This document shows, in pieces, positions 867-31,829 of a DNA stretch of 32,716 nucleotides (position 1 is its first letter; each line of letters opens with the position of its first letter). The translations under genes were made by a program, and so were the position numbers. Under the pieces are notes generated by a model, which saw nothing but the letters and a program-made list of their open reading frames with translations, did not search any database and was not told the DNA's origin. This DNA is from Candidatus Thorarchaeota archaeon (lineage in GTDB: Archaea > Asgardarchaeota > Thorarchaeia > Thorarchaeales > Thorarchaeaceae), in the NCBI GenBank assembly GCA_003345595.1, contig PRDI01000042.1, positions 1 through 32,716 on the forward strand. Reading direction: 5' to 3'.

Positions 867-1035
867 CCTGAGTTTTTGAATTCATCTATGCAGGGTGACA
901 CAAAAGGGCGGACATGGGTGCGCGCCGCACGAGACATCTATCATCTGCACACAATTCCTTACACGGAAAGAATGAGGAACGTGTCGGTGAGAGCTGGATT
1001 CGTTCTGCGTCGTGGCTCTGCATAACAGAAAGAGA

Positions 1036-1071
1036 TGGTAGCGGGGTCGATTTGAACGACCGGTCTCAGGG
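1036..1071 (-). repeat. tRNA-iMet 3' fragment repeat, truncated at anticodon stem
   Basis: tggtagcggggtcgatttgaacgaccggtctcaggg. Confidence 0.9.
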
Positions 1072-1188
1072 CGTTTCAGACATCTGTCATCGAAACCAAA
1101 GAGACAACATGACAGGGTGCGAGGGAGCGTCTGATGGACAGCGAATCTTCATATCTCTCAGAACACAATACGTTTTGAGGGAAGCATA

Positions 1189-1722: not shown

Positions 1723-2244
1723 CTACACCTTGGCTTCATCCTGCTTCTCAACACCCGGGAGTGCCAACCAGACAAGCCTACCGAGCACTCCATTTGGAAT
1801 CGATGTGATCAGGACTGATAGCCCAAACAATGCAATCGAGGCCTCTAGATTGCTGGCAAAATGCCCGCCGGGTTGGATCCCTGCCAGTAGCGCCATAAAG
1901 AGAATTACCGGCAGCTGCATGATGCAGAGGAGCGCGAACAGGGCTGCTCCATCTCTGAGAGCCACTTCGGTTTCTTGCCGTGTCTGTTTAGTCTGAGTAG
2001 ACCACAGGCGTGCGGCTATTGCAGAGTTGACTGCCCCCAGAACAATAAACCCTCCTAGGAAGCCATACACAGTCGCAATCAGGGCCAAGATCGGCTCATA
2101 GGTGAGCGGACGAGGTTCGTAGCTCAATATCCAATCAGCGGAAAAAGCAAGGGGCCAGAGTCCGGCCAACAGTACCGAGAAGAGAATCCCGTGCAGGAAG
2201 TGTCTGCCTACGGACAATGCGCCGAACATGCCTCTCTCACTCAT
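1723..2244 (-). CDS. Hypothetical membrane protein
   Basis: 173 aa, about 4 hydrophobic segments, ggtga RBS upstream. Confidence 0.7.
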   Translation of the reverse strand: MSERGMFGALSVGRHFLHGILFSVLLAGLWPLAFSADWILSYEPRPLTYEPILALIATVYGFLGGFIVLGAVNSAIAARLWSTQTKQTRQETEVALRDGAALFALLCIMQLPVILFMALLAGIQPGGHFASNLEASIALFGLSVLITSIPNGVLGRLVWLALPGVEKQDEAKV

Positions 2245-2409
2245 CGTATATCACCATGCGAATAGATGAAATACGCCCAGTACCGGAGATCGCTGTATTC
2301 CTATGAACTTTCCGTAGCAAAGGCAGGCCGTAATGACACTTCGGAAACGCTCCGTTTCCGGAAGGGACAAAGATGGGTCTTGACGGGACAGGATCCGAAA
2401 TCAGAGCCG

Positions 2410-2416
2410 TTTAATA
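2410..2416 (+). promoter_or_regulatory. Archaeal TATA box, probably for a leaderless transcript
   Basis: tttaata about 22-28 nt upstream of ATG 2438. Confidence 0.5.
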
Positions 2417-2437
2417 CCTGTAGTCCAAGGTCAACAT

Positions 2438-2641
2438 ATGCCAAGTGTTGACGTCAAGGTGTGGAAAGGCCTGTCAGAAGACGCTGCAGAGCATATCATC
2501 TCGGGGATCACCAAGGTCTTTGTTGAGTTAGGAATCCCCGAGCGAGCCGTCGAAGTCATCATTCATGAGATCCCAAAGACGCACTGGGGTGTCGGGGGGA
2601 GGCCCGCCTCCAAAGCGATGGCAGACGCACGGCCTCCCTAA
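2438..2641 (+). CDS. 4-oxalocrotonate tautomerase family protein
   Basis: 67 aa, catalytic Pro after Met, VEVIIHEIPKTHWGVGG motif. Confidence 0.9.
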   Translation: MPSVDVKVWKGLSEDAAEHIISGITKVFVELGIPERAVEVIIHEIPKTHWGVGGRPASKAMADARPP

Positions 2642-2932
2642 GCACTCCCTCAGTAGTCACCCCGGCTTGCTCACAGTTAGCAGTAGGTTGCATCCGGTGT
2701 GAAGTTCCTGTAGGCTGCTGCAAGAGGAATGGAGAGAGAGGTCCACGCTTTCCAGTTCACTTCCAGCGAAACACAATTCCTAGTGGCTGGTGCAGGAAGA
2801 CGGCGGCGTGAGGTCCATTCTCTTAATACCACTCCCCAGCAGGTTACGCTCTTGGACAGTGTACGAAATCGAGAGGTTTCTTCTATGCTCTCGATGACAG
2901 ATGGCCGTAAGGAGGAGCAGTTGGAAAGGAGA

Positions 2933-2974
2933 TTGCAGCGGGCCCTCGATTTGAACGACCGGTCTCAGGGTATG
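2933..2974 (-). repeat. tRNA-iMet 3' fragment repeat, T-arm/acceptor half of a split copy
   Basis: ttgcagcgggccctcgatttgaacgaccggtctcagggtatg; the other arm resumes at 3191. Confidence 0.85.
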
Positions 2975-2988
2975 CAACAGCTGCGTAG

Positions 2989-3147
2989 AAGTTGGACAAT
3001 CTTGGACATTTTCGAGTAGGGGCTTGAATAGCTCGAATCAGACGTCTCTTTGAGGCTGGCTCGACACAATCCAGCCTCAAGGAGTACGACCCCAGTGCCG
3101 TTTCTGGGAGGACAAAGACTCCTGTGTCCAACTCTGTCCAACTTACA
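2989..3147. mobile_element. Non-coding palindromic MITE-like element inside the split repeat
   Basis: Inverted repeats aagttggacaatcttggaca (2989-3008) and tgtccaactctgtccaactt (3125-3144), 17/20 match; central 14-bp stem 3046-3059/3071-3084. Confidence 0.55.
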
Positions 3148-3190
3148 ATGAACGGCTCTACTCATCCAGCTCCGATTGAGCTCTAGAAGC

Positions 3191-3204
3191 GAGCCCTGCG
3201 GGAT
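3191..3204 (-). repeat. Detached anticodon-stem arm of the split repeat
   Basis: gagccctgcgggat followed by the usual tatatgat flank. Confidence 0.75.
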
Positions 3205-3292
3205 TATATGATGGTTGCAGAAGATACTCTGTCTGCACTGCTGTCTCACCTTCTGCACCATGATTGTCATCCTTTGCCATTCGTGGCGGCAG

Positions 3293-4162
3293 CTATTCGC
3301 GCAAGAAATCGACCATTACCCTGTTGACCTCCTCCGGGTAGTCACGCTGAGTCCAGTGCCCGGCTCCCTCGATGATGTGCAGCTTGGCATTCGGGATACG
3401 CCCCGCTGCTTCTCTGGCATACTTCACGGGCACACCGATGTCCGCCGTTCCGTGCACGATTAGCGTCGGTACCTTAATCTCGCCCAAGCGCGGCACGTAG
3501 CAAGTCTTCACCCCTGTCCAGCGCGCCTCGTCCCTCTGGAACTGCGCGAACATCTTCCCGGCATTTGGATTCCTGAGCGCCACCACTGCCTCATCGATCA
3601 GCGCTTCAGTCAATGAAGCCGGGTCGCGGATAATTGTCTTCATCGTTTCTCTGATCATCCAGCGCGAAGAGCGGACCATCGCATAGAAGAGATTGTTGAC
3701 CAGCGGCAGCTTGACTAGTAGAACGCTGAAGAAGTGAGCCGATGTCTTGTCCTGCAAGCCGTAGGTCCCAATCAAGATGAGCTTTTCAACACGCTCCGGG
3801 TGCGCCAGCGTGAAACCCAACGCTGCCCCCCCGCCCATCGAGATGCCTGCCAGCGACGCCTCTTTCAACCCCCAAGCCTCCAGCAGACCTGTAGTGACCT
3901 CTATCAGCAGTTCCTGTGTGAATGGCTTTGGAGGAGGGGGACTGCTGCCATAGCCCGGCCAGTCCGGCAGGTACACTTGGAACCCTGCCTCGACCAGCGC
4001 CGGGACGGTATCCCGCCAAGACAGCATGGCCGAGTCCACTCCGCCACCGTGCAGCAACACCACTGGCTTGCCTTTCTTTCCACCGAAGAGATAGGTATTG
4101 ACCTCATATCCCCCCGGGAGGGATACGGTTTCCTGCTGTCCCTGCGGCACGGATATTATCAT
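3293..4162 (-). CDS. Alpha/beta fold hydrolase
   Basis: LLHGGG, DWPGYGSS, nucleophile GISMGG, HGTAD, catalytic GAGHW. Confidence 0.95.
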   Translation of the reverse strand: MIISVPQGQQETVSLPGGYEVNTYLFGGKKGKPVVLLHGGGVDSAMLSWRDTVPALVEAGFQVYLPDWPGYGSSPPPPKPFTQELLIEVTTGLLEAWGLKEASLAGISMGGGAALGFTLAHPERVEKLILIGTYGLQDKTSAHFFSVLLVKLPLVNNLFYAMVRSSRWMIRETMKTIIRDPASLTEALIDEAVVALRNPNAGKMFAQFQRDEARWTGVKTCYVPRLGEIKVPTLIVHGTADIGVPVKYAREAAGRIPNAKLHIIEGAGHWTQRDYPEEVNRVMVDFLRE

Positions 4163-4321
4163 TTGGTTCTCCTACCTTGGTATGTTTTCGCGTCTTGCGT
4201 CCTCTCTTCTCTCCAGTCTTCATGCATTCACTGGTGCACGGGAGTCGCTACCTTTTCTGTATTGTCGTTCGGTGAGAATCGGGACGGTGATTGTTTCGTC
4301 CACGAGATGATGAGAATGATA

Positions 4322-4376
4322 TGGTAGCGGGGGTCGATTTGAAAGACTGATCTCAGGGTCATGAGTCCTGCGGGAT
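4322..4376 (-). repeat. tRNA-iMet 3' fragment repeat, full length
   Basis: tggtagcgggggtcgatttgaaagactgatctcagggtcatgagtcctgcgggat. Confidence 0.95.
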
Positions 4377-4492
4377 GATATGAGCTTGTAAGCGGCAGCT
4401 GCGATTGCACCATGAATTCGTGGTTTCTTGGTTGCGTGTTTCACGGGGATTTATACAGCAGAAGAACGATCCGAAGACTGAGGGGTTCCCGA

Positions 4493-4612
4493 ATGGAATC
4501 AGAAGAAATCATGAAGACTGTAGATGATGTAATCGAGCTAGTGAAGGACGTACCTGAGCCGTGCCGTCTGACAGATTTCCCGACCAGACCCCCAGAAGAC
4601 ACAGGAGGATAA
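4493..4612 (+). CDS. Possible small protein (39 aa, MESEEIMKTVDD...)
   Basis: tttata box near 4450 and gagggg RBS-like sequence; no recognisable family. Confidence 0.3.
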   Translation: MESEEIMKTVDDVIELVKDVPEPCRLTDFPTRPPEDTGG

Positions 4613-4725
4613 CAGTCTGCTTGCTGATTTTCACATTGACCCTACCAAGGATCCGGCTCATGATTTCCGAGAGAACTGGATATATCGGGCTTCGCGGCGC
4701 TGAAACATGCTGGAGGAACAGGTCT

Positions 4726-5574
4726 ATGAGGTATGGCATCTCAATAGAGAACTTCGGATGGTTTGGGGACATCAACCTCATGCTCAAGTTCGCGGTCGAA
4801 GCAGAGAAGGCAGGCTGGGATGGTTTCTTTCTTTGGGACCATCTTCAGATATTCCCGCCAAGCGAGGCCATGCCCTTCATAGATTCTTGGATGGCCCTCG
4901 CTTCGATAGCCGTGAAGACGAAGAAGATGCGACTTGGGCCAATGGTGACACCGCTTCCCAGAAGAAGACCGTGGAAGCTCGCGAGGGAGGCAGCGACACT
5001 GGATCATCTGTCTAATGGTCGGTTAACACTAGGTGTCGGTATTGGTGCGCCGCCTAATCCTGAGTTCGCGTCCTTCGGGGAAGACACGAATCCGCGCACA
5101 CGAGCAGAGAAGCTTGACGAAGGTCTTGATGTGATCACTGGACTATGGTCTGGTGAAGCGTTCTCCTATGAGGGCAAGCACTACCATGTGCATGAGGCTC
5201 GATTCCTGCCCAAGCCCAAGCAACAGCCGCGAGTTCCCATATGGATCGGCGGAGGGTGGCCGAAGACAAGCCCTTTCAGACGGGCGGCCAAGTACGATGG
5301 TGTAGTACCTGTTCACACAGACTGGCCCAAGAGAATAACCACTGCCAATCTTGAAGAGATACTCCGACTAATTGAGTCTGAGAGAGGAAATCTTCGTGAC
5401 TATGATGTTGCAGTATCAGGTCACACTGCCGGCAACGATTCCACGGAAGACCGCGAACTCATGCAGTCTTGGATTGATGCTGGCGCGACTTGGTGGCTGG
5501 AGGAAATCGAGAGTCTGCGTGGCGGCCTCGAAGAGCTGAGAGAGAGGGTCGAAAGAGGTCCTCCTCAAGCTTGA
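4726..5574 (+). CDS. LLM-class (luciferase-like) flavin-dependent oxidoreductase
   Basis: AEKAGWDGFFLWDH, LDHLSNGRLTLGVG, PKPKQQPRVPIWIGG; start moved to ATG 4726 after a ggagga RBS. Confidence 0.93.
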   Translation: MRYGISIENFGWFGDINLMLKFAVEAEKAGWDGFFLWDHLQIFPPSEAMPFIDSWMALASIAVKTKKMRLGPMVTPLPRRRPWKLAREAATLDHLSNGRLTLGVGIGAPPNPEFASFGEDTNPRTRAEKLDEGLDVITGLWSGEAFSYEGKHYHVHEARFLPKPKQQPRVPIWIGGGWPKTSPFRRAAKYDGVVPVHTDWPKRITTANLEEILRLIESERGNLRDYDVAVSGHTAGNDSTEDRELMQSWIDAGATWWLEEIESLRGGLEELRERVERGPPQA

Positions 5575-5642
5575 GAGCAAACACGCTGGGCTCTGCCATA
5601 ACTATGGAAACCCTTTCGAACCATGACCAATCAGTTGAGAAG

Positions 5643-5697
5643 TGGTATCGGCGGTCGATCTGAACGACCGATTTCAGGGTCATGAGCTCTGCGGGAT
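5643..5697 (-). repeat. tRNA-iMet 3' fragment repeat, full length
   Basis: tggtatcggcggtcgatctgaacgaccgatttcagggtcatgagctctgcgggat. Confidence 0.95.
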
Positions 5698-5717
5698 TGT
5701 ATAATCTGGACGGCCCG

Positions 5718-6437
5718 CTATGCTGGTATCTGTCCTTGCTCCATGGTCCTAACGTATCTACGCCTCGAGAAGTACGTGAAAAGACCGAGTTGGAGGAGGC
5801 CTAAGGCAGCGGAAGCCAATAGAAACACGCTTGACAGTCGGGCAAGATTGATGTAGCCCACGAGCGCTAGGTCCCCGAAGATGAGCAGGTACGCAACGCG
5901 CTGAGCCAATACCCAGACGACGATGGTCAAGACGAGCACGGAATAGGAGGAGTTCGTTATCGTATTATTACGGATTGTTCTACCCACCCGAAGGAATGGA
6001 ATCGCAACGGTACAGTAGAAACCCGCCACGAATGACGAGCTCGCGAGTAGGGACTGAGTGATACTCTCATAGATGCCCAGCATTAGCACGATGGTGAGCA
6101 CTCCTCCAATAAGCAGTGTCACGAACCATGCATGGTCCCACAGTTTCCAGTAGAAAGGTTCCTGGAGTTCCCGCGCATTGGCGCCGGCAGTTTCAGGACT
6201 TGCTCTCCCTGGCACTTGAGTAGAGGGTGACTGCCTGACCCCCCTCTCGCGAAGAATCTCGCCCACTTCGGTGTAGAGGCCAAAGAGAATCAGGCCAAAG
6301 AACAAGATCTGAACGGTGATCATTCCGTCTACGTCGAATCCGAAGCGGAACAAGTCTGGCGAGAAGATTCCGCCGAGTACGCCCGCGGCCAGTGTGGTCG
6401 CAGCGAGCAGCCACGATGACTTCGCTTCCTCATTCAC
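5718..6437 (-). CDS. Multi-pass membrane protein, cassette family A (1 of 3)
   Basis: Paralogous to 21057-21824 and 23237-23953 (TLAAG.LG..S..LF..G..VDG.I, AQR.AYL); probable GTG start at 6437 after gggagg. Confidence 0.8.
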   Translation of the reverse strand: MNEEAKSSWLLAATTLAAGVLGGIFSPDLFRFGFDVDGMITVQILFFGLILFGLYTEVGEILRERGVRQSPSTQVPGRASPETAGANARELQEPFYWKLWDHAWFVTLLIGGVLTIVLMLGIYESITQSLLASSSFVAGFYCTVAIPFLRVGRTIRNNTITNSSYSVLVLTIVVWVLAQRVAYLLIFGDLALVGYINLARLSSVFLLASAALGLLQLGLFTYFSRRRYVRTMEQGQIPA

Positions 6438-6564
6438 GTCCTGCGTCCTCCCTCGTTTCCAATCTTCATGCATCTGCTGGTCTGAGGGACCAATTGGCTT
6501 TTCTGCATTGTCTTTCGATGAGTCTGGAACGGGGTCACGCTGTCCTTGAGCTGAGGAAAAGAGA

Positions 6565-6615
6565 TGGTATCGGGCGGCCGATCTGAACGACCAATCTCAG
6601 GGTCATGAACCCTGC
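6565..6615 (-). repeat. tRNA-iMet 3' fragment repeat
   Basis: tggtatcgggcggccgatctgaacgaccaatctcagggtcatgaaccctgc. Confidence 0.93.
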
Positions 6616-6841
6616 AGACGCGATGAGATTTGCTAGCGCACTCGTCAGTGACACACGCGACCCGCGTCTGCGCGATAGACATGGGTAATGCATCATGGCA
6701 GACATAGTGCAACGGCAGGAGCAAGTTCCCTGGTAATGGGAAACCGTCCTGACTTCGAAGTCATCCAATGTGGATAACGAAGGAGCCATAATGGCTGCTC
6801 TGAGCCATTCTCTTTTACGTATCTCAGCCTCAACCAAAGAC

Positions 6842-7330
6842 ATGACACAGGTGGATACACGAGCTGATGAGCTCACCGAGTTGATCAGACAAATACGCGG
6901 TGCTCGGCCAAATCCAAAGAAGCTGAAAGCTCTGCTTGAGAAGTATGAGAGAGAGTTCGGGTTTGAGGCAGAGAAACAGGCTCTAGATATTATAGCGAAG
7001 ACAACCACAAGAGCATGGTCTAAACTCGCGGAGGAAAGAGAGAGTCGCGGCATTGATGACCTTCTTGATATGCTGTGGGGGTCTTTTGAACAAGCAGGGG
7101 GTGTCTTTACTGTTGAAAGAACTGAGGACTCTGCGCAGATTCACTGCACGAGATGCCCAATAGCAGATTCGTATCTCAGCATTGGTAAACCCAAGTACGG
7201 GCTAATATTCCACTGTAGTACGGATCCACACATTGTTGCAGGGTTCAATCCGGAGATAGAGTTCAGAGTAACGAAGAGGCTCATGAGTGGGGATGACTGC
7301 TGTGATCACTATTATCGCTTGAGAAGGTGA
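6842..7330 (+). CDS. L-2-amino-thiazoline-4-carboxylic acid hydrolase-like family protein
   Basis: CP.A....G....G..F.C..D......FNPEIEF...K.LM.GDDCCDH pattern; start uncertain (6770-6842). Confidence 0.8.
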   Translation: MTQVDTRADELTELIRQIRGARPNPKKLKALLEKYEREFGFEAEKQALDIIAKTTTRAWSKLAEERESRGIDDLLDMLWGSFEQAGGVFTVERTEDSAQIHCTRCPIADSYLSIGKPKYGLIFHCSTDPHIVAGFNPEIEFRVTKRLMSGDDCCDHYYRLRR

Positions 7331-7451
7331 ACTGCTCCAATTATCCGCGTTTTCAGAGAACCTCGGTGTATCAACAGGTTCACGAGTGGGAAGTTCTCCA
7401 CAAGACGACCGTATTCGAGTCTGACAATACTTAGAAAACCGAGAAAGGAAA

Positions 7452-7506
7452 TGGTAGCGGGGGTCGATCTGAACAACCGGTTTCAGGATCATGAGCCCTG
7501 CGGCAT
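7452..7506 (-). repeat. tRNA-iMet 3' fragment repeat, full length
   Basis: tggtagcgggggtcgatctgaacaaccggtttcaggatcatgagccctgcggcat. Confidence 0.93.
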
Positions 7507-7767
7507 TGTGTGTTGGAGGCCGGTGCCGTAGCTATTCACGTTGGGGTGAATCTGGAGCCCATGTTGAGTGATTACTATAGACTGCGTGGGTGGAACCTAG
7601 AAAACGGACTTCCCACGGACGATACATTGCGAAGACTATCTCTCAAGTGGACTCGTACCAGCTTCCTACGGAAGTAGCCAATCCCAGCCGACCGAATAGG
7701 ATATAGACAAATGCCCGTATCTGGAAATAGGCATTTTAAGCATGCCATCAGGGAGAGCTCTCAGATA

Positions 7768-9978
7768 ATGGTGAACAAGAACTTAGCAGTATCTCTATTC
7801 GTAGTCTTCTTGGTGTCTTCCTTCACGGCCTTTGCACAGACGACGCTCCCACAATCACAGAATGTCCCTCAAGTAACGCCTCAAATGACAATTAATCCAA
7901 CTGGTTACAGCATAAATTCGGACTTGCCCGGATCAAGTGTTTTGATACGGGAATACGTACTACCTGCGGGTAGTCCGGCCACAACCTATGTGCCATCGAC
8001 AGGTCCGAGTTTTCCCACAGACGTAACCTATGATGCTCTTGGATTCATATGGTTCACTGACATCTTCAACAACAGGATATATCGTCTGACGCCAGCGACG
8101 GAGATTAACCAAACCTCAACTACAGCATTGAAGTGGCAACTGCCTCTGACTTTGAACATGACGCGTGGTCCGGCCCACATCATTGTTGATGATGCTCATA
8201 CCTGCGTCTGGTTCACTGATTACGCAAGTATGCAAATCAGTCGTCTCGACTGGATAACCAATCTACTCACAGACTGGACTATCCCAAGGAACTTGAACAT
8301 TCACCCTTGGGATTTGATCATGGATACGGAAATTGGCAACATCTGGTTCACCGCATTCAACATGTCCAAGTTCTGCGAGCTTAACCCTGGCAGCGGCACC
8401 CTGTTCGTCTACAACTTGTTGGTGCCGGGTGCCACTGGGGGGTTCCTGCCTGCACGTCTTGCAGAAATGAAGCCGAGTGGGGATCATTTCTATATGACAG
8501 ACTTGGGTTTTGACTATCTCTACAAGGTCAAATTCGTCAATCCTATGGCGACAGGAGCTCTCGTTTACCCGCTCGTAGCTGATGGATCCAGCTTAGCACT
8601 AGCAGTAGACAGCAAGGAGAATGTGTGGGTCACTCAGCCCACGAATGACCTCGTGAATGAACAGGTCGTCGGAAGCACGAACAAGTACGTCGGAAACTTG
8701 ACTCTCATACAAACAACTCTGCCCGACGACAGGAATTACGTTAACCCTCAGATAATAGAAATCAGGATTCAGATAACTCCAGTTCGACCCGAGGAATACA
8801 ACATTCCTCCTCGAATAAAGGGTGACCCCTTGGCGATATGGACAGTCCCCTCATCACCGTCCGGACCTTGGGGGATTGATGTCGACACCAATGACAGCGC
8901 ATGGTACACTGAATTCTCCGGCAATCAAATCGGAGTAATCGTCCCGGCATCCAACAAGACAGTGGAGTACATGGTTCCGACAGCTAATTCGCATCCGTTA
9001 TACGTTACTGTGCCGCGGAGTACAATGCCACCTTTTGAAACTCACGTGTGGTTCACGGAGCTTACGGGCGGTAAGATTGGTGAGCTCTTCAGCGCCACCT
9101 ATGTCGATATCCGTGTGGCTCCATCTCTTCCGCCGCAGTATCCTCCACCAAACCCCGGTTCCATACGCTGGACTACCGAGCCTGGTGCGGAGATTTGGAT
9201 TGATGCACCCAGCAACGGGTACAGCTCTGCTCATCATGATGTGCCAGAGAGGGGGGTGGTGAACCATCTCTATGCTCAAGTGACGAACTTGGGCTTCTCG
9301 ACAGCTAGCAACGTTGAGGTCACATTCTACTACCACAACATGTCTGTGTCGTTTGCACAGTTGATTCCGTTGCCGCCCACTGCACCGTTGTCCTCATGCT
9401 GGATCCTAATAGGTAGCACGACAGTATCATCACTGGCACCCAGCCTCTCGATAGATGTGTACGTGAACTGGACAATCGCTTCCAGTGTGCCCGATCACTT
9501 CTGCATAGGTGTGCAAGCTGACGCCGCAGGCGACATTAACCTGTATGATAACGTTGCATACCGTAACTTCGAGATATACAGCATTCTTGCAGGGGTTCCC
9601 ACAACACTCTACTTACCAGTCTGGGCCACGAACTCCCTCAATGGTACAGGTTACATGAGTCTGTCATTATCTGGCGTTCCTGCAGGCTGGACGGCTGAAG
9701 TAAAGCCGAATGGCTTTGAACTTGGAAAAGGCAAGTCCAAGCTGCTGAACCTCACAATCCAGGTGCCCTCATCCACACGGGCTGGCATGCGTGCCGTGAT
9801 AAGACTCACTGGCATGATAAACGGAACCACGACTGGAGCGGTTTGGATTGAAGTGGACATCATTGCCGCAACCACGACGGGGCCATCCATACCCATAGTG
9901 GACATAGCTCTCTTGGGCGGTGGGTTTGTAGCAGGCATTGTGTTAATGCTAGCCATTGGATCTAGGCACAAAAAGTAG
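7768..9978 (+). CDS. Secreted, membrane-anchored Vgb-lyase-like beta-propeller protein with CARDB/NEW3-like Ig domains
   Basis: Signal peptide, repeated P..I..D..G.IWFT motifs, VTNLG...A.NVEVTFY, GVPAGWTA, C-terminal TM plus basic tail; ttttaag TATA at 7734. Confidence 0.8.
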   Translation: MVNKNLAVSLFVVFLVSSFTAFAQTTLPQSQNVPQVTPQMTINPTGYSINSDLPGSSVLIREYVLPAGSPATTYVPSTGPSFPTDVTYDALGFIWFTDIFNNRIYRLTPATEINQTSTTALKWQLPLTLNMTRGPAHIIVDDAHTCVWFTDYASMQISRLDWITNLLTDWTIPRNLNIHPWDLIMDTEIGNIWFTAFNMSKFCELNPGSGTLFVYNLLVPGATGGFLPARLAEMKPSGDHFYMTDLGFDYLYKVKFVNPMATGALVYPLVADGSSLALAVDSKENVWVTQPTNDLVNEQVVGSTNKYVGNLTLIQTTLPDDRNYVNPQIIEIRIQITPVRPEEYNIPPRIKGDPLAIWTVPSSPSGPWGIDVDTNDSAWYTEFSGNQIGVIVPASNKTVEYMVPTANSHPLYVTVPRSTMPPFETHVWFTELTGGKIGELFSATYVDIRVAPSLPPQYPPPNPGSIRWTTEPGAEIWIDAPSNGYSSAHHDVPERGVVNHLYAQVTNLGFSTASNVEVTFYYHNMSVSFAQLIPLPPTAPLSSCWILIGSTTVSSLAPSLSIDVYVNWTIASSVPDHFCIGVQADAAGDINLYDNVAYRNFEIYSILAGVPTTLYLPVWATNSLNGTGYMSLSLSGVPAGWTAEVKPNGFELGKGKSKLLNLTIQVPSSTRAGMRAVIRLTGMINGTTTGAVWIEVDIIAATTTGPSIPIVDIALLGGGFVAGIVLMLAIGSRHKK

Positions 9979-10167
9979 CATCTCTTGGGCTAGGACTTCG
10001 CGTTCCTAGCCTCACCTCTTTCTTCTTCTATGGACTGTATACAACTTCCAGATGTCTGGTCAATGCGTCGTGAATGAGAAGTCCGCCCGAATTTCTGAGT
10101 CTTGTGGCATCCTAGACATTCTGCAGACTTCAAGCGCAGGGAATTGCGGCGAAGCAGCAAGAGGAAG

Positions 10168-10201
10168 TGGGGGCGGGGGGTCGATTTGAACGACAGGTCT
10201 C
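10168..10201 (-). repeat. tRNA-iMet 3' fragment repeat, truncated
   Basis: tgggggcggggggtcgatttgaacgacaggtctc. Confidence 0.88.
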
Positions 10202-10443
10202 TGTGGTTAGCCTTTGACATCAGAGAGCTTAATATCTGAAGGGTCGCTATACAGAAATCTCACCCCGTGTGAAGCGTCTTACGGGCCCGCACTTTCTCCT
10301 CTGACTGCGCTATGTCATCTGCAGTGAATATGGCCGACGTGAGGAGCGGGAATGCAGGAGCCTCGGTTTCCCATGACACGTCTGGAAAGAACACCTTGCC
10401 TGCATTGAGGCAAGTGTCACAAATGCTTGGGGCGTGAAGATAG

Positions 10444-11412
10444 ATGGATTCGTGGCGTAAGCAACTCAGATTCAACCCAATCAAGCCTCTGCTGGATTCA
10501 GGAAATGAGGCTATTGTCTTCTTCACAAAGAGAGACCTATTGAATGAGGATGCGGGTGACATTGAACAGCTGTGGCATATGGAACAGCCACAGAAACTGC
10601 TTGAGAAGCAACAGAATGACGGTTCGTGGAAATACAGAGGAAAGAAGAGTCTGCAGCGTGAGTACAACAAGCTGGAAACATATAGGACGATCGGCTGGCT
10701 TGTTGAGAAATATGGCATGAATAGAGCGCACGTTTCAATTCAGAAGGCAGCGGAATTCCTGTTTAGCTTCCAGACAGACGAAGGTGACTTTCGTGGCATC
10801 TACGGGAATCAGTACAGCCCGAACTACTCCGCCGCCATAATGGAGCTGCTCATCAAGGCAGGGTATGAGAATGACCCCCACATAGACAGGGGTCTGAAAT
10901 GGCTAATTTCCATGCGCCAGAGTGACGGCGGCTGGGCAGGCCCGCTGCGCACACACAAAGTCGAATACAGTGTGATCAGGGATAAGGAAACGCTTCAACC
11001 CGACAGATCCAAGCCGTTCTCGCATTTGGCCACAGGAATAGTCCTCCGAGCATTTGCTGCTCATAAAGAATATAGGAAGAGGAGGGAGATAGTCCACGCA
11101 GCAGAACTGCTCGCATCCAGATTCTTTCAGAAGGACGCCTATCCTGACAGGGCGGACGTCAGCTACTGGACGAGATTCAGATATCCCTTCTGGTGGACGG
11201 ATATACTGTCATCACTTGACTCATTGTCTCTAATTGGCGTGACAGTTGGGAATCAGAACGTCAGAAAAGCACTGGACTGGTTTGTAGGGAAGCAGAACAA
11301 AAGCGGCATCTGGAAGGTGTACCTCCTTGCCAGCGCCAATGACAGGAGGTTTAATGACCTCTGGATCTCACTGGCTATCTGCCGGGTGTTCAAGAAGCTT
11401 TACGTGGGATGA
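10444..11412 (+). CDS. Prenyltransferase/squalene-oxidase repeat (QW-motif) protein
   Basis: QQNDGSW, QTDEGDF, RQSDGGW and KQNKSGIW repeats. Confidence 0.8.
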   Translation: MDSWRKQLRFNPIKPLLDSGNEAIVFFTKRDLLNEDAGDIEQLWHMEQPQKLLEKQQNDGSWKYRGKKSLQREYNKLETYRTIGWLVEKYGMNRAHVSIQKAAEFLFSFQTDEGDFRGIYGNQYSPNYSAAIMELLIKAGYENDPHIDRGLKWLISMRQSDGGWAGPLRTHKVEYSVIRDKETLQPDRSKPFSHLATGIVLRAFAAHKEYRKRREIVHAAELLASRFFQKDAYPDRADVSYWTRFRYPFWWTDILSSLDSLSLIGVTVGNQNVRKALDWFVGKQNKSGIWKVYLLASANDRRFNDLWISLAICRVFKKLYVG

Positions 11413-13191: not shown

Positions 13192-13354
13192 GTCCTCACA
13201 GCCTGAAATGCCTTACGAACCGTGACAGGCTTCACTCAACCTTCCTCTTGAGAAGGTACGCCGTCCTGTTTTGAGAGGGACATGTGACATACTGCGTTCT
13301 TAGTCTATGAACTTAGTTCATAAGCGGACGAAAGATGGAGTGATTAGAAAGAAG

Positions 13355-13406
13355 TGGTAGCGGGGGTCGATTTGAACGGCCGATCTCAGGGTCATGAGTC
13401 CTGCGG
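13355..13406 (-). repeat. tRNA-iMet 3' fragment repeat, full length
   Basis: tggtagcgggggtcgatttgaacggccgatctcagggtcatgagtcctgcgg. Confidence 0.95.
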
Positions 13407-13614
13407 AACGGAAGGGGAACCCCAGAGTCCTACAAGGGTATCCTTGCTGCCATTGTAGCTTCAATTCGCTCGTTGTCTACGCAACGATTCCTACCTGAAT
13501 GATGACCTAGGTGGTGAAAGCCTCATCTTATGCTGGGTTTCGAGTACACGCGAGAAGAGGAATAACCTCAATGTGGAACAGTAGGCCGCTCTGTCAGGTA
13601 CGCAACTGCGCCCA

Positions 13615-14270: not shown

Positions 14271-14405
14271 TCCCACAATCGTGCCCAAAGGTATTAACTG
14301 TATCGCACCCAAAGGTGATGGCTGTACCACATCTTCGGTGAGATCTCGTCCGAATTGGTGTGCGGTCAACAAAGAAGCACAAGAAGCCACGCAGAAGTTG
14401 AGAGA

Positions 14406-14461
14406 TGGTAGAGGGCGATTGGTTTGAACGACCGATCTCAAGGTCATGAGCCCCGCGGGAT
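14406..14461 (-). repeat. tRNA-iMet 3' fragment repeat, full length, diverged
   Basis: tggtagagggcgattggtttgaacgaccgatctcaaggtcatgagccccgcgggat. Confidence 0.9.
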
Positions 14462-15202: not shown

Positions 15203-15313
15203 CGCAAGAGCTCAGATGCTACTGCCCTATTGCTGGTGAGCAGCATTTATGCTTGTCCCTGCACGCGTCGCATCTTAGTGGGCATATAGACAGTTCAAGC
15301 TCGGAAAGTGAAA

Positions 15314-15351
15314 TGGTAGCGGGCGGTCAATCTGAACGAGCAATCTCAGGG
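15314..15351 (-). repeat. tRNA-iMet 3' fragment repeat, truncated at anticodon stem
   Basis: tggtagcgggcggtcaatctgaacgagcaatctcaggg. Confidence 0.9.
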
Positions 15352-15372
15352 GCCTCCATCCGAGTATGGCAG

Positions 15373-16176: not shown

Positions 16177-16384
16177 GTCACATCCCTCTGGGAAGGATCA
16201 CTTCCTGCAGCAATTGCCCTATACATAACAGGGTCCGAGAACATCCTGAGCCCTCTGACTGCACAATCTGCAGACCTGTAATATGAATTCTTCTCTCGCT
16301 ATCGAATCTTCCTCGCAAATGGACAAATGAGGCCGCGTGAGCACAGATGTGGCAAACCGGTTGGTCATGGCAGGTCAGAAGAAG

Positions 16385-16439
16385 TGGTAGCAGGGGTCGA
16401 TTTGAACGACCGATCTCAGGGTCATGAGTATCTTGGGAT
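16385..16439 (-). repeat. tRNA-iMet 3' fragment repeat, full length
   Basis: tggtagcaggggtcgatttgaacgaccgatctcagggtcatgagtatcttgggat. Confidence 0.93.
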
Positions 16440-18985: not shown

Positions 18986-19125
18986 TCCATCACCCCAGTA
19001 AAGGTGCGGTCAGTCGAGTTTCGGCCGAAACATGTCCGGGATTGCCTGACAGGCGCAGTTGGAGTTTCAGCATTTCTCGCCTTTTCTCCATTGCTGTCAA
19101 GTAAGGCGATGCGGGACTGGAGAGA

Positions 19126-19156
19126 TGGTAGGGGGTCGATTTGAACGACCCCTCTC
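19126..19156 (-). repeat. tRNA-iMet 3' fragment repeat, truncated
   Basis: tggtagggggtcgatttgaacgacccctctc. Confidence 0.85.
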
Positions 19157-19300
19157 GGCTGCCATGGTTCTGGACTCTTCTTATGGCATGCCACATCCCA
19201 TGAGAATCAGCCTGCGACTGTTTCATGAAACTGGCGCGTCATGGTCCATGGAATGAGCTTAAATCCATACATGCACATACATACACAGAGTGTGAGAGGA

Positions 19301-19537
19301 ATGGGTTACAAGACAATCTCTCTCTCAGACGAGGCTTACGAGATTCTCAAGAAAGCGAAGAGAAACAGTGAGAGCTTCAGTCAGGTCGTCATCAGACTAG
19401 CCAGTAGACGGTCACTCGATGACTTCGTTGGATGCATCTCCAAGGAGTCCATCGAGAGGATGTCTGCCGCAATAGACGCCTTCCGGAAAGGGCGAGGTGA
19501 GGTCTGGTCCGAGAGTATGGAAGAGATGATGGGATGA
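19301..19537 (+). CDS. VapB-type antitoxin (DUF217-like)
   Basis: KTISLSDEAYEILKKAK...ESFSQVV.RL; cttaaat TATA at 19258; directly upstream of a PIN gene. Confidence 0.88.
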   Translation: MGYKTISLSDEAYEILKKAKRNSESFSQVVIRLASRRSLDDFVGCISKESIERMSAAIDAFRKGRGEVWSESMEEMMG

Positions 19538-19544
19538 GGCCCCA

Positions 19545-19937
19545 ATGATAGCTGACTCATCTTTCATCATTGACCTCATGCGCGAGAGCGAACCGGCTCT
19601 GAGGAAGCTGGCAGAGATCAGAGAGAGTGGCCAGCCGCAGTATGTCACATCTCCTACAGTCATGGAACTGGCAGTCGGTGTTGCACTGGCCAGTCTGCCC
19701 AAGGATGAACAGAAGAAGGTCGGCGATATCCTAGGAGGTTTCCAAGTCCTCCCACTGGACACGGTTTCCGCATGGCGCGCAGGGATTGAAGTAGGACGAC
19801 TGCGAAAGACGGGCAAGATAGTGGATCCGATAGATGGACAGATAGCAGGAATAGCTCTTCAACATGACGAGTCCATCGTGACACGGAATGCGGGGCACTT
19901 CCAGATGTTCAAGGGCCTAAAGATCGAGCCCTATTAG
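19545..19937 (+). CDS. vapC: PIN-domain toxin (VapC family)
   Basis: IADSSFIIDL, TVMEL..G, DGQIAGIAL, IVTRN..HF. Confidence 0.92.
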   Translation: MIADSSFIIDLMRESEPALRKLAEIRESGQPQYVTSPTVMELAVGVALASLPKDEQKKVGDILGGFQVLPLDTVSAWRAGIEVGRLRKTGKIVDPIDGQIAGIALQHDESIVTRNAGHFQMFKGLKIEPY

Positions 19938-20141
19938 CTCCCCACCACGAGATGACGGGAAATGCGGTACAGTCGATAGGTTACCCCGACGCCTAGCATG
20001 TAGATGCGGGAAACGCCATCAGTCATCGTCGCAGGATTCCCGGGTCTTGTACAGGTGCCCCAATCACGTGGATTGCTGACGGTTGCACGAAGAGTGAGCA
20101 GGCACGACCGACCGCGTGCATGATTCAGGTCGGAAGGGAAC

Positions 20142-20196
20142 CGGTGGCGGGCGGTCTATCTGAACGACCGATCTCAGGGTCATGAGCCCTGCGGAT
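20142..20196 (-). repeat. tRNA-iMet 3' fragment repeat, full length
   Basis: cggtggcgggcggtctatctgaacgaccgatctcagggtcatgagccctgcggat. Confidence 0.93.
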
Positions 20197-20413
20197 GGTT
20201 CTGTGACTACATCATCGGGGCGCCCAGACCACGGACCGGGTACGACTCGAGTCCGCGATAGATTCACTGACACCTACAAGACACGAAAGCGTGTCGCAGT
20301 TATCATGTCAAAGGCAGAGAACGAGAACGGTGGCGCCAAGCGTACTTATTAAGGAGTTCCGTTTCACGGACGCCGGCTGTTCTAAATCAGAAACGCTAGG
20401 AGGAGAATTGTGT

Positions 20414-20960: not shown

Positions 20961-20981
20961 GGCACAATACAGGAAGAGAAA

Positions 20982-21036
20982 TGGTGGCGGCGGTCGATCT
21001 GAACGACCGATCTCAGGGTCATAAGCCCTGCGGGAT
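20982..21036 (-). repeat. tRNA-iMet 3' fragment repeat, full length
   Basis: tggtggcggcggtcgatctgaacgaccgatctcagggtcataagccctgcgggat. Confidence 0.95.
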
Positions 21037-21056: not shown

Positions 21057-21824
21057 CTATACAGGATTCTGTGTTGGTTCCGCAGTCCCAAGACCCTTGG
21101 GTCTGAAGTAGTACATGACAAAGCCATTTGCGAGCGCACCTATGGCGGAAACAGCCAATAGATTCCTGCTTGACAATCCAGCCAGAGCAATGTGGTCCGG
21201 GATCTCTATGTAACCCAAGTACTCTAGGAGAATCACATATGCCGTCCGCTGTGCGAACGCCCACAAGAGGATAGTCAGGATTAGCAGGAGCGAAGACACC
21301 CTGACCATTGTGTGATGGCTGCCCATCCCAGCTCGAAGGCATGTCGCGATTCCGATGAGGAATGCGCCTGCCACAAATGATGTACTTGTGAGTAGGTCGA
21401 CAGCGTAATCAACGGTGTCTTCTGGGAATACAGAAAGCAGGCCATATGAAGCATACATGACTCCCACCCACATTAAGAAGACAACTACTATCATAGCAGT
21501 CCCTAGCAGGGCAGATAGGCTGTCCACCGAGTTTCGGTTGACGTTTGCTTGGGGCCCCTCAACACCGGCACTAGGAGTTTCGGTATTCGGGCTTCTTGGC
21601 ATTGGGACCGAAGGCGACTGCGTAGACCCCCAGTCTGGACGAATCTCGCCCAGTGTGATGCAGAAGCCCAAGAGAAACAGACCAATGAACAACGCTTGGA
21701 GAGCAATCACTCCGTCTACGCTGGCCCCATAACCAAATAGTGTTGAAGAGAGAAGTTCGCCAAGTGCACCTGCGATGAGTGCAGTCAAAGCAAGGAACAC
21801 CCGCGGCTTTGTTCTCTTGCTCAT
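21057..21824 (-). CDS. Multi-pass membrane protein, cassette family A (2 of 3)
   Basis: Paralog of 5718-6437 and 23237-23953; gggagg RBS. Confidence 0.82.
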   Translation of the reverse strand: MSKRTKPRVFLALTALIAGALGELLSSTLFGYGASVDGVIALQALFIGLFLLGFCITLGEIRPDWGSTQSPSVPMPRSPNTETPSAGVEGPQANVNRNSVDSLSALLGTAMIVVVFLMWVGVMYASYGLLSVFPEDTVDYAVDLLTSTSFVAGAFLIGIATCLRAGMGSHHTMVRVSSLLLILTILLWAFAQRTAYVILLEYLGYIEIPDHIALAGLSSRNLLAVSAIGALANGFVMYYFRPKGLGTAEPTQNPV

Positions 21825-22007
21825 GTCTTGTGTCCTCCCTCACGTCCAGTTTTCAAGCACGGGTCGGTATGCAGGCGTCCTGCCTTTTCTGTACTACTGT
21901 TCAATCAGGACCGGCACAGCAGCCGCCCCGACCACACTGCAGTGTTGGCTCAAACGTACTCGCACCCTGAATCACGGTGAGTCGCAGCAAAGCTGGAAGA
22001 TGAGAAG

Positions 22008-22046
22008 TGGAAGCGGAGGGTCGATCTGAACGACCGGTTTCAGGGT
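22008..22046 (-). repeat. tRNA-iMet 3' fragment repeat, truncated at anticodon loop
   Basis: tggaagcggagggtcgatctgaacgaccggtttcagggt. Confidence 0.9.
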
Positions 22047-22064
22047 TTTCCGAGCTTCTGTACA

Positions 22065-23057: not shown

Positions 23058-23160
23058 TGTTCTGATGTGTTGCGCAGATATTAGCCTACCGACAGTCTGT
23101 GAATGAACTGAGTATGAACCTCACTGATTCTGGTGGCTCGAACGGACTCCTTGGTATGAG

Positions 23161-23216
23161 CGGTAGCGGGCGGTCGATCTGAACAACCGATCTCAGGGTC
23201 ATGAGCCGCGCGGGAT
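23161..23216 (-). repeat. tRNA-iMet 3' fragment repeat, full length
   Basis: cggtagcgggcggtcgatctgaacaaccgatctcagggtcatgagccgcgcgggat. Confidence 0.95.
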
Positions 23217-23236
23217 GGTATAATCTGGCCAGTAGT

Positions 23237-23953: not shown

Positions 23954-24132
23954 GCTTCCTACCCTCCGTCATGTCCGGTTTTCGAGCACCTGTCAGTGCG
24001 TAGGTGCCATGCCTTTTCTCCATTATTGTTCAGAGAGAATCGTGACGGCAACTGCGCCCATGATATCACACATTCGGTTGACATAGTCTGCACCCTAGAC
24101 CACCGCGATCGCAGCGAAGCAGCAGAAGGAAC

Positions 24133-24188
24133 TGGTAGCGGGGGGTCGATCTGAACGACCGATCTCAGGGTCATTAGCCCTGCGGGAT
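24133..24188 (-). repeat. tRNA-iMet 3' fragment repeat, full length
   Basis: tggtagcggggggtcgatctgaacgaccgatctcagggtcattagccctgcgggat. Confidence 0.95.
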
Positions 24189-24692: not shown

Positions 24693-24717
24693 CAACAAAG
24701 CAGGAATTGGAAGAAGA

Positions 24718-24752
24718 TGGTGGCGGGGGTCGATCTGAACGACCGATCTCAG
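24718..24752 (-). repeat. tRNA-iMet 3' fragment repeat, truncated
   Basis: tggtggcgggggtcgatctgaacgaccgatctcag. Confidence 0.93.
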
Positions 24753-24837
24753 CGGTCCTCCTTTGATATGACAAAACCTATTTTCGGAAAGGACAGCATA
24801 CAGATGGTAACCACACTATGTGTGAAGCGTGGAGGAA

Positions 24838-26545: not shown

Positions 26546-26615
26546 TCTATGCGTGTGGTTGCTGTGGAGCCACCGCAACTATCACGGTCGTCGACAAGAG
26601 CAAACAGAGAGGAAG
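26546..26615 (+). pseudogene. 3' remnant of the Zn-ribbon membrane protein gene
   Basis: ctatgcgtgtggttgctgtggagccacc...gacaagagcaaacagagaggaag aligns with ~1629-1697 and ~28653-28721. Confidence 0.75.
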
Positions 26616-26696
26616 TGGTAGCGGGGGTCGATTTGAACGACCGGTTTCGGGGCTCTACTCTCCAGCTCCGATTGAGCTCGGGAACTGAGCCCTGCG
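26616..26696 (-). repeat. tRNA-iMet 3' fragment repeat split by a ~33-bp insert in the anticodon loop
   Basis: First half 26616-26652, insert 26653-26685, then tgagccctgcg 26686-26696. Confidence 0.88.
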
Positions 26697-27912: not shown

Positions 27913-28085
27913 GCAGTAAAGTCAGGCCAGTTCTATCTCTTCTGTGTATGAGAAAGCACACTGGTTTCTAGTAGTCCAGAAGTTGTGTCAAAAGGCCGTG
28001 GCGTACTATGGGGAGGTACTATGATTGGCGTTTGACATGACGTTGAATCCAATGGCCTGAATCTGCTGAACTCAGAAGACGAAGA

Positions 28086-28140
28086 TTGTAGGGGGGGTCG
28101 ATTTGAACGACCGATCTCAGGGTCATGAGCCTTGCGGGAT
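28086..28140 (-). repeat. tRNA-iMet 3' fragment repeat, full length
   Basis: ttgtagggggggtcgatttgaacgaccgatctcagggtcatgagccttgcgggat. Confidence 0.95.
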
Positions 28141-28215: not shown

Positions 28216-28743
28216 TTGAGGGAAGGAGAGCCATCGGACAGAATCTATGTCGTCGTGGATTCATCTATGATATCTCGGTGCGAGTGGTGTGGCGTCATGG
28301 AGAGCGAGAGCCGGCGCTTCTGCTCAACTGAGTGTGCGTTTGCAGCTGGCGCACCGGGAATGATCCCAATCCTCATGGTCGGTGCTGTGCTGTCTTCTCT
28401 ACTTATCTTGAATGTAGGCCAACCCACGTACATGAGTACACCTGGCTACCTTAAACTCCTCTCGCTGGTGCTGCCGATACCACTACTTATTATGGCCATT
28501 CAGGGAATCGAGCACAGAAAATCAGTGCCAAGAAACTCAAGGAGAAACGACGCCCCTCTTGATACAGCCCTACTCAGAACTGTGTCTACATCTGTAGCCT
28601 GTCCCAGATGTGACGCCAACATGGACGTGAGGGGCATCGGCAAGGACGGGGTCTATGTGTGTGGCTACTGTGGAGCCACCGGGACAGTCGCTGTCATCGA
28701 CAAGAGTGAACAGAGAAGAAGTGGTAGCGGGGGGTCGATCTGA
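28216..28743 (+). CDS. Zn-finger/Zn-ribbon membrane protein (paralog of 1189-1719)
   Basis: Same Cys pattern; last codons and TGA stop lie inside the repeat. Confidence 0.82.
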   Translation: MREGEPSDRIYVVVDSSMISRCEWCGVMESESRRFCSTECAFAAGAPGMIPILMVGAVLSSLLILNVGQPTYMSTPGYLKLLSLVLPIPLLIMAIQGIEHRKSVPRNSRRNDAPLDTALLRTVSTSVACPRCDANMDVRGIGKDGVYVCGYCGATGTVAVIDKSEQRRSGSGGSI

Positions 28744-28762
28744 ACGACCGATCTCAGGGTCA
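28722..28762 (-). repeat. tRNA-iMet 3' fragment repeat, truncated in anticodon loop
   Basis: tggtagcggggggtcgatctgaacgaccgatctcagggtca. Confidence 0.95.
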
Positions 28763-29543: not shown

Positions 29544-29569
29544 ATCTCAGGGTCATGAGCCCTGGGGGA
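29544..29569 (-). repeat. Half repeat: anticodon arm only
   Basis: atctcagggtcatgagccctggggga; no T-arm or acceptor part. Confidence 0.8.
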
Positions 29570-29701
29570 CACAATGAGCCACACTAGCGCAGTTATGAGC
29601 GATGCGAACGATGCATGTCTGCGTCAAGGGCATCAACAATGCGTCATCACAGTATTAGGACACAAATTTCATATCATGGAGAGCCGGATATGTACGTAGG
29701 C

Positions 29702-30781: not shown

Positions 30782-30807
30782 ACTGTAGAGTCTGTACAGG
30801 AAGGAGA

Positions 30808-30844
30808 TGGTAGCGGGCGGTCGATCTGAACGACCGATCTCAGG
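30808..30844 (-). repeat. tRNA-iMet 3' fragment repeat, truncated at anticodon stem
   Basis: tggtagcgggcggtcgatctgaacgaccgatctcagg. Confidence 0.95.
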
Positions 30845-30967
30845 ATGTTCTAGGCACTTGCCACCTAGGTCTGAGCGTTCATGCGATGAGAGAGCAGGAA
30901 CAGTTCTCTGGTATGAGGGATTCTGTGAATAGCGTGCAGAAGGCACAAGTCCGTGTGAATCGAGTGG

Positions 30968-31802: not shown

Positions 31803-31829
31803 GGGGTCGATTTGAACGACCGATCTCAG
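31803..31829 (-). repeat. tRNA-iMet fragment repeat, T-arm core only
   Basis: ggggtcgatttgaacgaccgatctcag. Confidence 0.88.

Follow-up and report, generated by a model that had tools for sequence, protein, structure and literature searches.

Initiator tRNA-Met fragments as chimeric joints of a probable gene-cassette stack in a genus of Thorarchaeota

The locus at positions 4322–4376 of a Candidatus Thorarchaeota contig raises the question of why the 3' half of a single tRNA gene should recur many times on one strand of the DNA, and whether its copies are still tRNA sequences or have become something else. The window analysed here, 32,716 nucleotides, is the entire contig C42 of the metagenome-assembled genome (MAG) G000 (2.73 Mb in 129 contigs, 83% complete). 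Read on the minus strand, 4322–4376 is composed of the 3' strand of the D stem (ATCCCG), an anticodon arm with the CAT anticodon (CAGGA-CTCATGA-CCCTG), the variable region (AGATC), the T arm (AGTCT-TTCAAAT-CGACC), the 3' strand of the acceptor stem (CCCGCT) and A73-CCA. The T-arm core, GGTCGTTCARATCGACC, is found 23 times in the 32.7 kb and always on the minus strand (23/23), with a spacing of 0.6–3.2 kb and mostly one gene per unit, while the anticodon-arm 17-mer gives 12 matches at two mismatches or fewer where 0.02 would be expected. The window holds 23 co-oriented copies of the tRNA-iMet 3' part plus one stump reduced to the anticodon arm, and contig C22 of the same genome carries a further six to eight copies on a single strand. 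The repeat consensus put forward in the original prediction coincides with that of 76 distinct long copies.

Archaeal initiator tRNAs are distinguished by the CAT anticodon, three consecutive G-C pairs in the anticodon stem and U72, which pairs with A1. The copies show T72 and a CAGGG/CCCTG (GGG/CCC) anticodon stem, and A1 is present in the intact genes that head the arrays of relatives (see below). The A1:U72 pair and the three G:C pairs (29–31:39–41) are in the repeat a sign of descent and not of function. Homology extends about 10 nt past the CCA into a pyrimidine-rich trailer that also lies behind the real tRNA-iMet genes of the family; since it runs into the 3' flank of the gene, the copies derive from gene DNA and not from RNA. 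The sequence thus supports the view that the copies descend from an initiator tRNA-Met gene, as had been proposed for 4322–4376. A cloverleaf with a 5' acceptor strand and a D arm is absent from all the window copies, no tRNA was called in the window by ARAGORN or Rfam, and no tRNA-iMet 5' half was seen beside any copy nor elsewhere in the G000 genome.

The extent of the copies was surveyed in 175 distinct examples, taken from MAGs and from 68 metagenome loci, which fall into four classes: intronless long copies starting around position 21, copies in which the 3' part of the anticodon-loop intron forms the left side, copies from position 39 and copies from near position 44. Positions 44–76 and the trailer are common to all four. 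In the window, where every copy lies on the minus strand, the long intronless class is represented by the copy at 4313..4376, with the D-stem 3' strand, the CTCATGA loop, a T arm of AGTCT/CGACC, the 6-nt acceptor strand CCCGCT, ACCA and the trailer. The long copies at 5633..5697 (acceptor of 6 nt, GCCGAT) and 7442..7506 (6 nt) combine G37 with G58, as does that at 23159..23216; 6555..6620 has the loop TTCATGA, G58 and the acceptor GCCCGAT; 20972..21036 has CTTATGA, G58 and a 6-nt acceptor; and 24124..24188 has CTAATGA, G58 and CCCCGCT. G37 is found in the long copies at 13345..13409 (6-nt acceptor), 14399..14461, where the 3' strand of the T stem is decayed, and 28078..28140, with the 6-nt acceptor CCCCCT and a CCA decayed to CAA. 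At 16377..16430 the CTCATGA loop is kept next to a decayed 5' stem and a 6-nt acceptor (CCTGCT), and the copy at 26605..26680 (6-nt acceptor) has a left side similar to the anticodon-loop intron (3' part) of the real genes.

The short copies comprise 1027..1073, which begins at position 39 and has a 5-nt acceptor (CCGCT) with its T arm at 1045; 2922..2972, with GCCCGCT and a CCA decayed to CAA; 15305..15353, with G58 and GCCCGCT; 21999..22047, with G58; and 24707..24753, with G58 and a 6-nt acceptor. Two further short copies carry G58, at 28711..28761, whose T loop contains the stop codon of an opposite-strand zinc-ribbon gene (28216–28743), and at 30797..30846 (GCCCGCT), which is also present in the metagenome contig L183 (96% identity) with a different right flank. 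The shortest class is seen at 10159..10203, which starts around position 44 and has a left flank in common with the copies at 24728 and 31805, at 19120..19157 and at 31803..31829, which ends after two or three acceptor bases. The stump at 29548..29572 retains the anticodon arm (CAGGG-CTCATGA-CCCTG) and GAGATT, without a T arm.

Several letters of these copies are unlike those of a working tRNA. G37 is present in each of the 12 window copies that retain the anticodon loop (nine with CTCATGA, one each with TTCATGA, CTTATGA and CTAATGA), as predicted from the reading CTCATGA in place of CTCATAA. G58, in the T loop TTCAGAT, was found in 12 of the 23 copies; A58 is nearly invariant in tRNAs. The acceptor strand measures 6 nt in nine copies (T arms at 4332, 5653, 7462, 13365, 16395, 20992, 24728, 26626 and 28096), exactly the nine named beforehand, and 7 nt in 11 of the 23, several of them with base changes; it is 5 nt long at 1045, 4 nt at 19134 and cut off at 31805, so that strands of 4–6 nt make up 11 of the 23. 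In 76 distinct long copies, changes in the ten stem pairs broke the pairing in 41 cases and turned it into a wobble in 24, with no compensatory double change. Such one-sided changes match those expected of unselected point changes, with no sign of selection for the fold. Variation in this set is greatest at positions 37 and 58, the rest of the 45-mer being at least 90% conserved. The lack of a 5' half, together with G37, G58 (12/23) and the 4–6-nt acceptors (11/23), supports the view that the copies are not under tRNA constraint, a point on which the original prediction and the stem counts agree. G37 and A37 alternate in three cases between copies that otherwise share one left flank; the overall 83:19 G:A ratio at position 37 in the metagenome set is biased, because that set was retrieved with a pattern bearing G37.

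The state of the real gene was then sought in relatives, as no intact tRNA-iMet was found in G000 (ARAGORN with and without introns, and a pattern search, in an assembly that is 83% complete). A candidate in G002 proved to be coding sequence and was rejected. Among 60 relatives searched, genomes of other genera gave one match each and multiple matches were restricted to the genus of the window (6 in G001, 2 in G002 and 11 in G003). The T arm is common to the iMet genes of many archaea, and among the matches listed only a Thorarchaeota MAG had it in multiple copies (genome contigs). In G003, a Ca. Thorarchaeota MAG of the same genus, an intact tRNA-iMet with one D-loop and one anticodon-loop intron heads the array on contig C10 (L013 4598–4739); 14 co-oriented copies follow up to 26674, and then conserved chromosome syntenic with contigs C90 and C49 of G000. 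Three metagenome loci (L152, L155 and L208) contain an intact head tRNA-iMet preceded by the same upstream genes as in G003. Wherever the start of an array is assembled, the array starts at an intact tRNA-iMet gene. The description of the copies as a self-standing family was in this respect too strong.

The four intact head genes have A37 (the 5' exon ends in CTCATA), A58 and a 7-bp acceptor stem, in which pair 7:66 is C7:G66 or G7:C66. In L152, L155 and L208 a canonical bulge-helix-bulge sets the intron at 37/38, the T loop reads TTCAAAT and the acceptor stem is AGCGGGG/CCCCGCT; in G003 the splice junction is not fixable by the fold or a bulge-helix-bulge, and A37 is there taken from the intron-bearing copies and from the motifs of the other three. 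In eight genomes that belong to other genera of the family, the real gene reads GGGCTCATAACCC / CTCATAA (A37) and has a 7-bp acceptor stem AGCGGGT/ACCCGCT, and every real gene of the family with a contiguous T loop has A58 (four head genes and eight real genes examined). Depending on the genus, introns interrupt the D loop, the anticodon loop or the T loop of the family's real iMet genes. G37 is not the host state in these relatives, where the head genes have A37 and not the G37 that would have spoken against the prediction, and A37 is likewise the probable letter in the window genome, judging from its congener and the metagenome relatives. In intron-bearing array copies the base that precedes A38 is G, A or C, as an intron base would be, and those copies that reach the 5' exon retain CATA. 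Plain duplication of the resident gene, which bears introns, cannot have produced the long intronless form.

Four conserved genes with no annotated function are always placed just upstream of the head (L013 2228–4562; L152 3–2181; L155 11989–13549; L208 12021–14259). They have no Pfam, PHROG or PDB match and are, as far as sequence comparison goes, apparently restricted to Thorarchaeota. A tRNA-iMet pseudogene with a decayed 5' half (AACGGCT...) was observed in L016 (G001 C60, 6183–6510) and L176 (2923–3250), with about 290 nt inserted at the site of the D-loop intron and then an intact-looking 3' part; the two orthologues differ at position 37 (A vs G), at 58 and at 72. Many of the about 20 tRNA genes predicted by ARAGORN in G000 carry introns.

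Comparison of the contexts in which the copies occur showed that they act as joints. Cassettes are shuffled among G000, G002 and G003, and metagenome contigs 96–99% identical to the window contain the same cassettes with other neighbours, which agrees with the earlier suggestion of recombination sites; the two halves of a site travel with different neighbours. The cassette at 19131–20194 is found in four other contigs at 97.6–97.8% identity, with different neighbours. At its joint on the tRNA-5' side the contexts differ through the 3' strand of the T stem (A37 vs G37, TGGTC vs AGACC) and are identical from position 66. The window copy at this joint, 20132..20197 (long, with G37 and G58), has its right part from position 66 in common with L182, L163, L194 and L213, and the left parts of these counterparts are different (A37, T-stem TGGTC). 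At the 3' joint the sequences are identical through CGACC and the C run, beyond which they split into three right halves. Their acceptors measure 4, 6 and 7 nt, and every one of the three right halves occurs in two or more independent assemblies. The window copy here, 19120..19157, has the 4-nt acceptor CCCT (T arm at 19134) and is identical in the independent assembly L179; its left part occurs with two other right parts, one in L182 and L194 and the other in L213 and L190. A further case is that of 13345..13409, whose right flank is found in the metagenome contig L168 behind a different left part and a 7-nt acceptor.

The same division was apparent when pairs of copies were compared. Of 23 pairs with only the left flank in common, 5 have unlike T loops, 12 of 18 have unlike acceptors and 20 have unlike trailers; of 16 pairs with only the right flank in common, 8 have unlike T loops, 6 of 12 have unlike acceptors and 2 have unlike trailers. 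Thus the T loop travels with the left flank, the trailer follows the right flank, and the acceptor strand goes with neither. Paralogous cassettes within the window lose homology 2–3 nt 3' of the T arm (families D6, D9 and D14), and that between the cassettes at 24707..24753 and 31805 begins 2 nt 3' of the T arm. These marker tallies, the cassette at 19131–20194 and the break points of the paralogues place the switch between the T arm and the CCA. Exchange is shown, by sequence comparison, to lie in or next to the acceptor strand (around positions 65–72), the same stretch whose length varies, although informative sites are scarce in the conserved core, all but a handful of pairs resolve the exchange no further than 'between T loop and trailer', and two right-homologous pairs differ as far as position 72–73. 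Each copy can on these grounds be described as a chimera, with a left part from the cassette on its tRNA-5' side and a right part from the other cassette. The left half covers position 21, 39 or 44 up to the end of the T arm (position 65), and the right half comprises the remainder of the acceptor, ACCA and the pyrimidine trailer of about 10 nt that is the gene's own 3' flank.

About 90 pairs with both flanks in common are letter-identical, C run included, and the odd joints, those of 4 and 7 nt among them, are letter-identical in independent metagenome assemblies. The acceptor lengths are therefore not assembly noise, and the concern about homopolymer errors raised with the original prediction is answered. 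Slippage in the C run after recombination could be another source of length variants. No fragments with both flanks conserved were found below about 99% identity; that no pair retains both flanks beyond about 1% divergence indicates a fast turnover, time and recombination being confounded in this comparison because the pairs with unchanged context all come from nearly identical strains. A circular or excised form was not seen. Not all differences arise at joints: relative to the window at 11427/11428, the 96%-identical contig L168 has a 589-nt insertion (7401–7989) with a small ORF and one tRNA copy, and this indel has no recognisable copy on the window side and is not bounded by two copies.

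The search for an enzyme covered the arrays, their heads and the rest of the genus genomes. PF00589 had no match in G000, G001 or G002, and its sole match in the genus was on a G003 contig other than the array; PF16795 had no match in the four genus genomes and PF00239 none in G000 or G002. G003 encodes a tyrosine recombinase and a serine recombinase, neither of them on the array contig, and G001 has one serine-recombinase match on a contig outside the assembled arrays. A jackhmmer search with the G003 integrase recovered nothing in about 560 kb of arrays, and no recombinase family recurred among the matches listed for 107 cassette protein clusters (Pfam, representatives, 25 commonest families). 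No tyrosine or serine recombinase was found in or beside any array, and no IntI-type integrase beside an array head. In the four genus genomes, matches to LAGLIDADG_3 and GIY-YIG all lie elsewhere, none in arrays or at the head, and a pattern scan of a viral contig set found no contig with the repeat site. A 283-aa protein adjacent to the head, the product of one of the four upstream genes, was considered as a LAGLIDADG candidate and rejected, the stretch having been seen by eye only, with no profile match and an AF2 model of mean pLDDT 55. It has no match in Pfam, PHROGs, a PDB profile search or the ESM Atlas, and five homologues among 5.8 billion proteins, all unnamed, the sole labelled one being from Thorarchaeota; the 268-aa protein next to it has no match in Pfam or PHROGs.

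Taken together, we consider it rather probable that the repeat is the joint of a gene-cassette stack built behind the initiator tRNA-Met gene in this genus, with chimeric sites formed by exchange in the acceptor strand. A new cassette would enter at the real gene, which would keep its own positions 1–65 and receive positions 66–76 and the trailer. The left half, with position 37 and the T loop, would then never serve as tRNA, and for this reason the changes A37 to G and A58 to G could persist; the acceptor length, which varies between 4 and 8 nt, would do so because the acceptor strand is the joint itself. A 6-nt right half at the head would break the gene, so that joints of this kind must come about, or be maintained, inside the array. 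The copies would in this way be tRNA-derived recombination sites still anchored to the gene, and not spare parts for a tRNA. This modifies the earlier reading. The copies were said to be unable to rebuild a canonical tRNA, and G37 and the short acceptors are indeed un-tRNA-like, but the half with G37 and G58 would never be passed to the real gene, and its drift would call for no separate account; the 6-nt strands, which lie at the point of exchange, are better read as variants of the joint than as general decay. With G37 and G58 in a half never used as tRNA and the length variation at the exchange point, the model becomes testable, and placing the reaction within about 8 nt provides a basis for an enzyme search, for junction PCRs and for a search for excision in long-read data. 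If true, dense one-gene stacks of this kind behind tRNA genes, with no recognisable integrase, would give Asgard archaea a means of collecting genes that differs from both integrons and integrase-borne islands.

As to the chemistry behind such a stack, breakage and repair is slightly favoured over a conservative integrase acting in trans. This lean comes from the joints, which gain and lose bases, and would make the process comparable to the WHO elements of yeasts (PMC7282813). A more specific version, which we regard as possible but speculative, is an integrase-free gene collector in which a candidate nuclease cuts the tRNA-iMet at the border of T stem and acceptor and repair from another site copies a cassette in. 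Bases gained or lost in the acceptor (4–8 nt) would be scars of the repair and would protect old joints from being cut again, and an arms race over the cut site would explain why pair 7:66 is swapped between species (C:G, G:C, U:A). It would amount to an integron-like system with different chemistry in the archaeal group closest to eukaryotes.

Other explanations were weighed against the stack of active joints. The intact tRNA at the head with co-oriented 3' fragments behind it (G003 C10, L152, L155 and L208) is the classic picture for tRNA-targeting integrases and tycheposon islands (bioRxiv 10.1101/2020.12.28.424599), and the copies could accordingly be inert, decaying attR/attL leftovers of ordinary integrase elements that inserted serially in tRNA-iMet and then lost their mobility genes, the alternative already named with the original prediction. 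The one-sided stem decay would fit, and the several classes of 5' extent suggest several attP lineages. We nevertheless find this unlikely, because neither a recombinase nor a remnant was found in the array units, the units are only 0.6–3.2 kb long and mostly of a single gene, identical cassettes lie in different neighbourhoods at about 98% identity, and conservation of the left halves is 90% or more between unrelated cassettes. General homologous recombination between the 40–70-nt repeats, shuffling, duplicating and deleting genes with no dedicated enzyme, would agree with copies that are all direct repeats with a nearly invariant core of 30–40 nt, with the paralogous cassettes inside the window and with the failure to find a recombinase. 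It would however spread crossovers over the identical core, whereas the T loop here keeps to the left flank and the trailer keeps to the right one; it would leave the length of the joint unchanged and would be unable to bring in new cassettes with unrelated genes, all of which makes it an unlikely account.

Split tRNA genes occur in some archaea, such as Nanoarchaeum and Caldivirga, and C runs are error-prone on some sequencing platforms, G003 being apparently a long-read MAG. That the copies are working 3' halves of split genes, or that the 6-nt strands and G37 are sequencing or assembly errors, is nonetheless highly improbable: there are no 5' halves in the genome, homology past the CCA into the 3' flank speaks for copying at the DNA level, G58 and short acceptors are incompatible with function, and the joints of 4 and 7 nt are letter-identical in independent metagenome assemblies. 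The copies do resemble split or permuted archaeal tRNA genes in being stand-alone 3' halves in a host genome rich in tRNA introns; they differ from them in the lack of matching 5' halves or leader complementarity and in changes that would be lethal for a tRNA.

Among the systems to which the stack of joints can be compared, the accretion islands of the Prochlorococcus tycheposons (bioRxiv 10.1101/2020.12.28.424599) and of the Dehalococcoides ssrA locus (PMC3146451) likewise begin proximally with an intact tRNA or tmRNA gene, behind which co-oriented partial 3' copies divide blocks of flexible genes; the repeat includes the 3' flank of the gene, and the newest material is expected beside the gene. 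Those islands have few partial copies, kilobases to tens of kilobases apart, and integrases or their remnants, whereas the Thorarchaeota array packs 23 copies into 32.7 kb, most of its units hold a single gene, no recombinase was found in the arrays, and many of its copies carry an intronless tRNA part reaching position 21 that is not contiguous in the host gene. Integron arrays (attI, attC and IntI), including the integrons of archaea (Ghaly et al. 2022, PMC9668308, as cited in PMC11529989), are similar in their mostly one-gene units bounded by a repeated site, in an exchange inside the site that makes each site a chimera of two cassettes, and in cassettes anchored at one fixed site and shuffled among close relatives. 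Unlike them, the array has no IntI, a tRNA 3' part in place of the attC palindrome, joints of variable length and genes in both directions, its largest ORFs being split about evenly between the strands.

The WHO homing elements behind FBA1 in Torulaspora and Lachancea yeasts (PMC7282813) share another aspect, as an essential gene repeatedly receives a new 3' end and the displaced 3' ends accumulate behind it, co-oriented and with other genes between them, and a cut-and-repair mechanism would account for joints that gain or lose bases. Every WHO unit has an endonuclease gene, however, and none was found in the cassettes or at the head here; moreover, only about 11 nt and the trailer of the tRNA would be replaced. 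The array fails the defining tests of accretion islands, integrons and WHO elements, no integrase, attC or nuclease having been found. Its logic of stacking is shared with accretion islands and WHO elements and the behaviour of its cassettes with integrons. The Aloposons and the mobile elements of Atabeyarchaeia were considered and are unrelated. A literature search found no description of dense, one-gene, tRNA-anchored cassette stacks without a recognisable integrase. New here are the anatomy of the chimeric site and the location of its exchange point within the acceptor strand, along with the observations that real head genes carry A37 and A58 and that G58 occurs in the copies.

The cassettes themselves contain several recurrent gene families. 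Three paralogues of 238–255 aa on the minus strand (5718–6473, 21057–21824 and 23237–23953) have no Pfam or PHROG match. Each ends about 13–20 nt before a long-class copy (the 251-aa family member about 13–20 nt upstream of 5633..5697, the 255-aa one just upstream of 20972..21036 and the 238-aa one just upstream of 23159..23216), so that gene and left half form one repeated unit. A 175-aa family with two zinc ribbons flanking two predicted membrane helices is encoded on the plus strand at 1189–1719 and 28216–28743 and around 22750–23450 of G003 C10; its stop codon falls within the T loop of the next tRNA copy, and its cassette is the most widely shared among the genus genomes. These zinc-ribbon membrane proteins, whose stop lies in the repeat, were considered and discarded as not recombinase-like. 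TPR proteins of 402 and 388 aa, with eight to ten 102-nt (34-aa) units that are 60–70% alike, are encoded at 26911–27822 and 29780–30793 in neighbouring, paralogous cassettes (26686–27866 vs 29556–30735, 67%). In an array on L174, a 184-kb metagenome contig, a frame of 3125 codons stays open (1841–11215, minus strand) among the tRNA copies.
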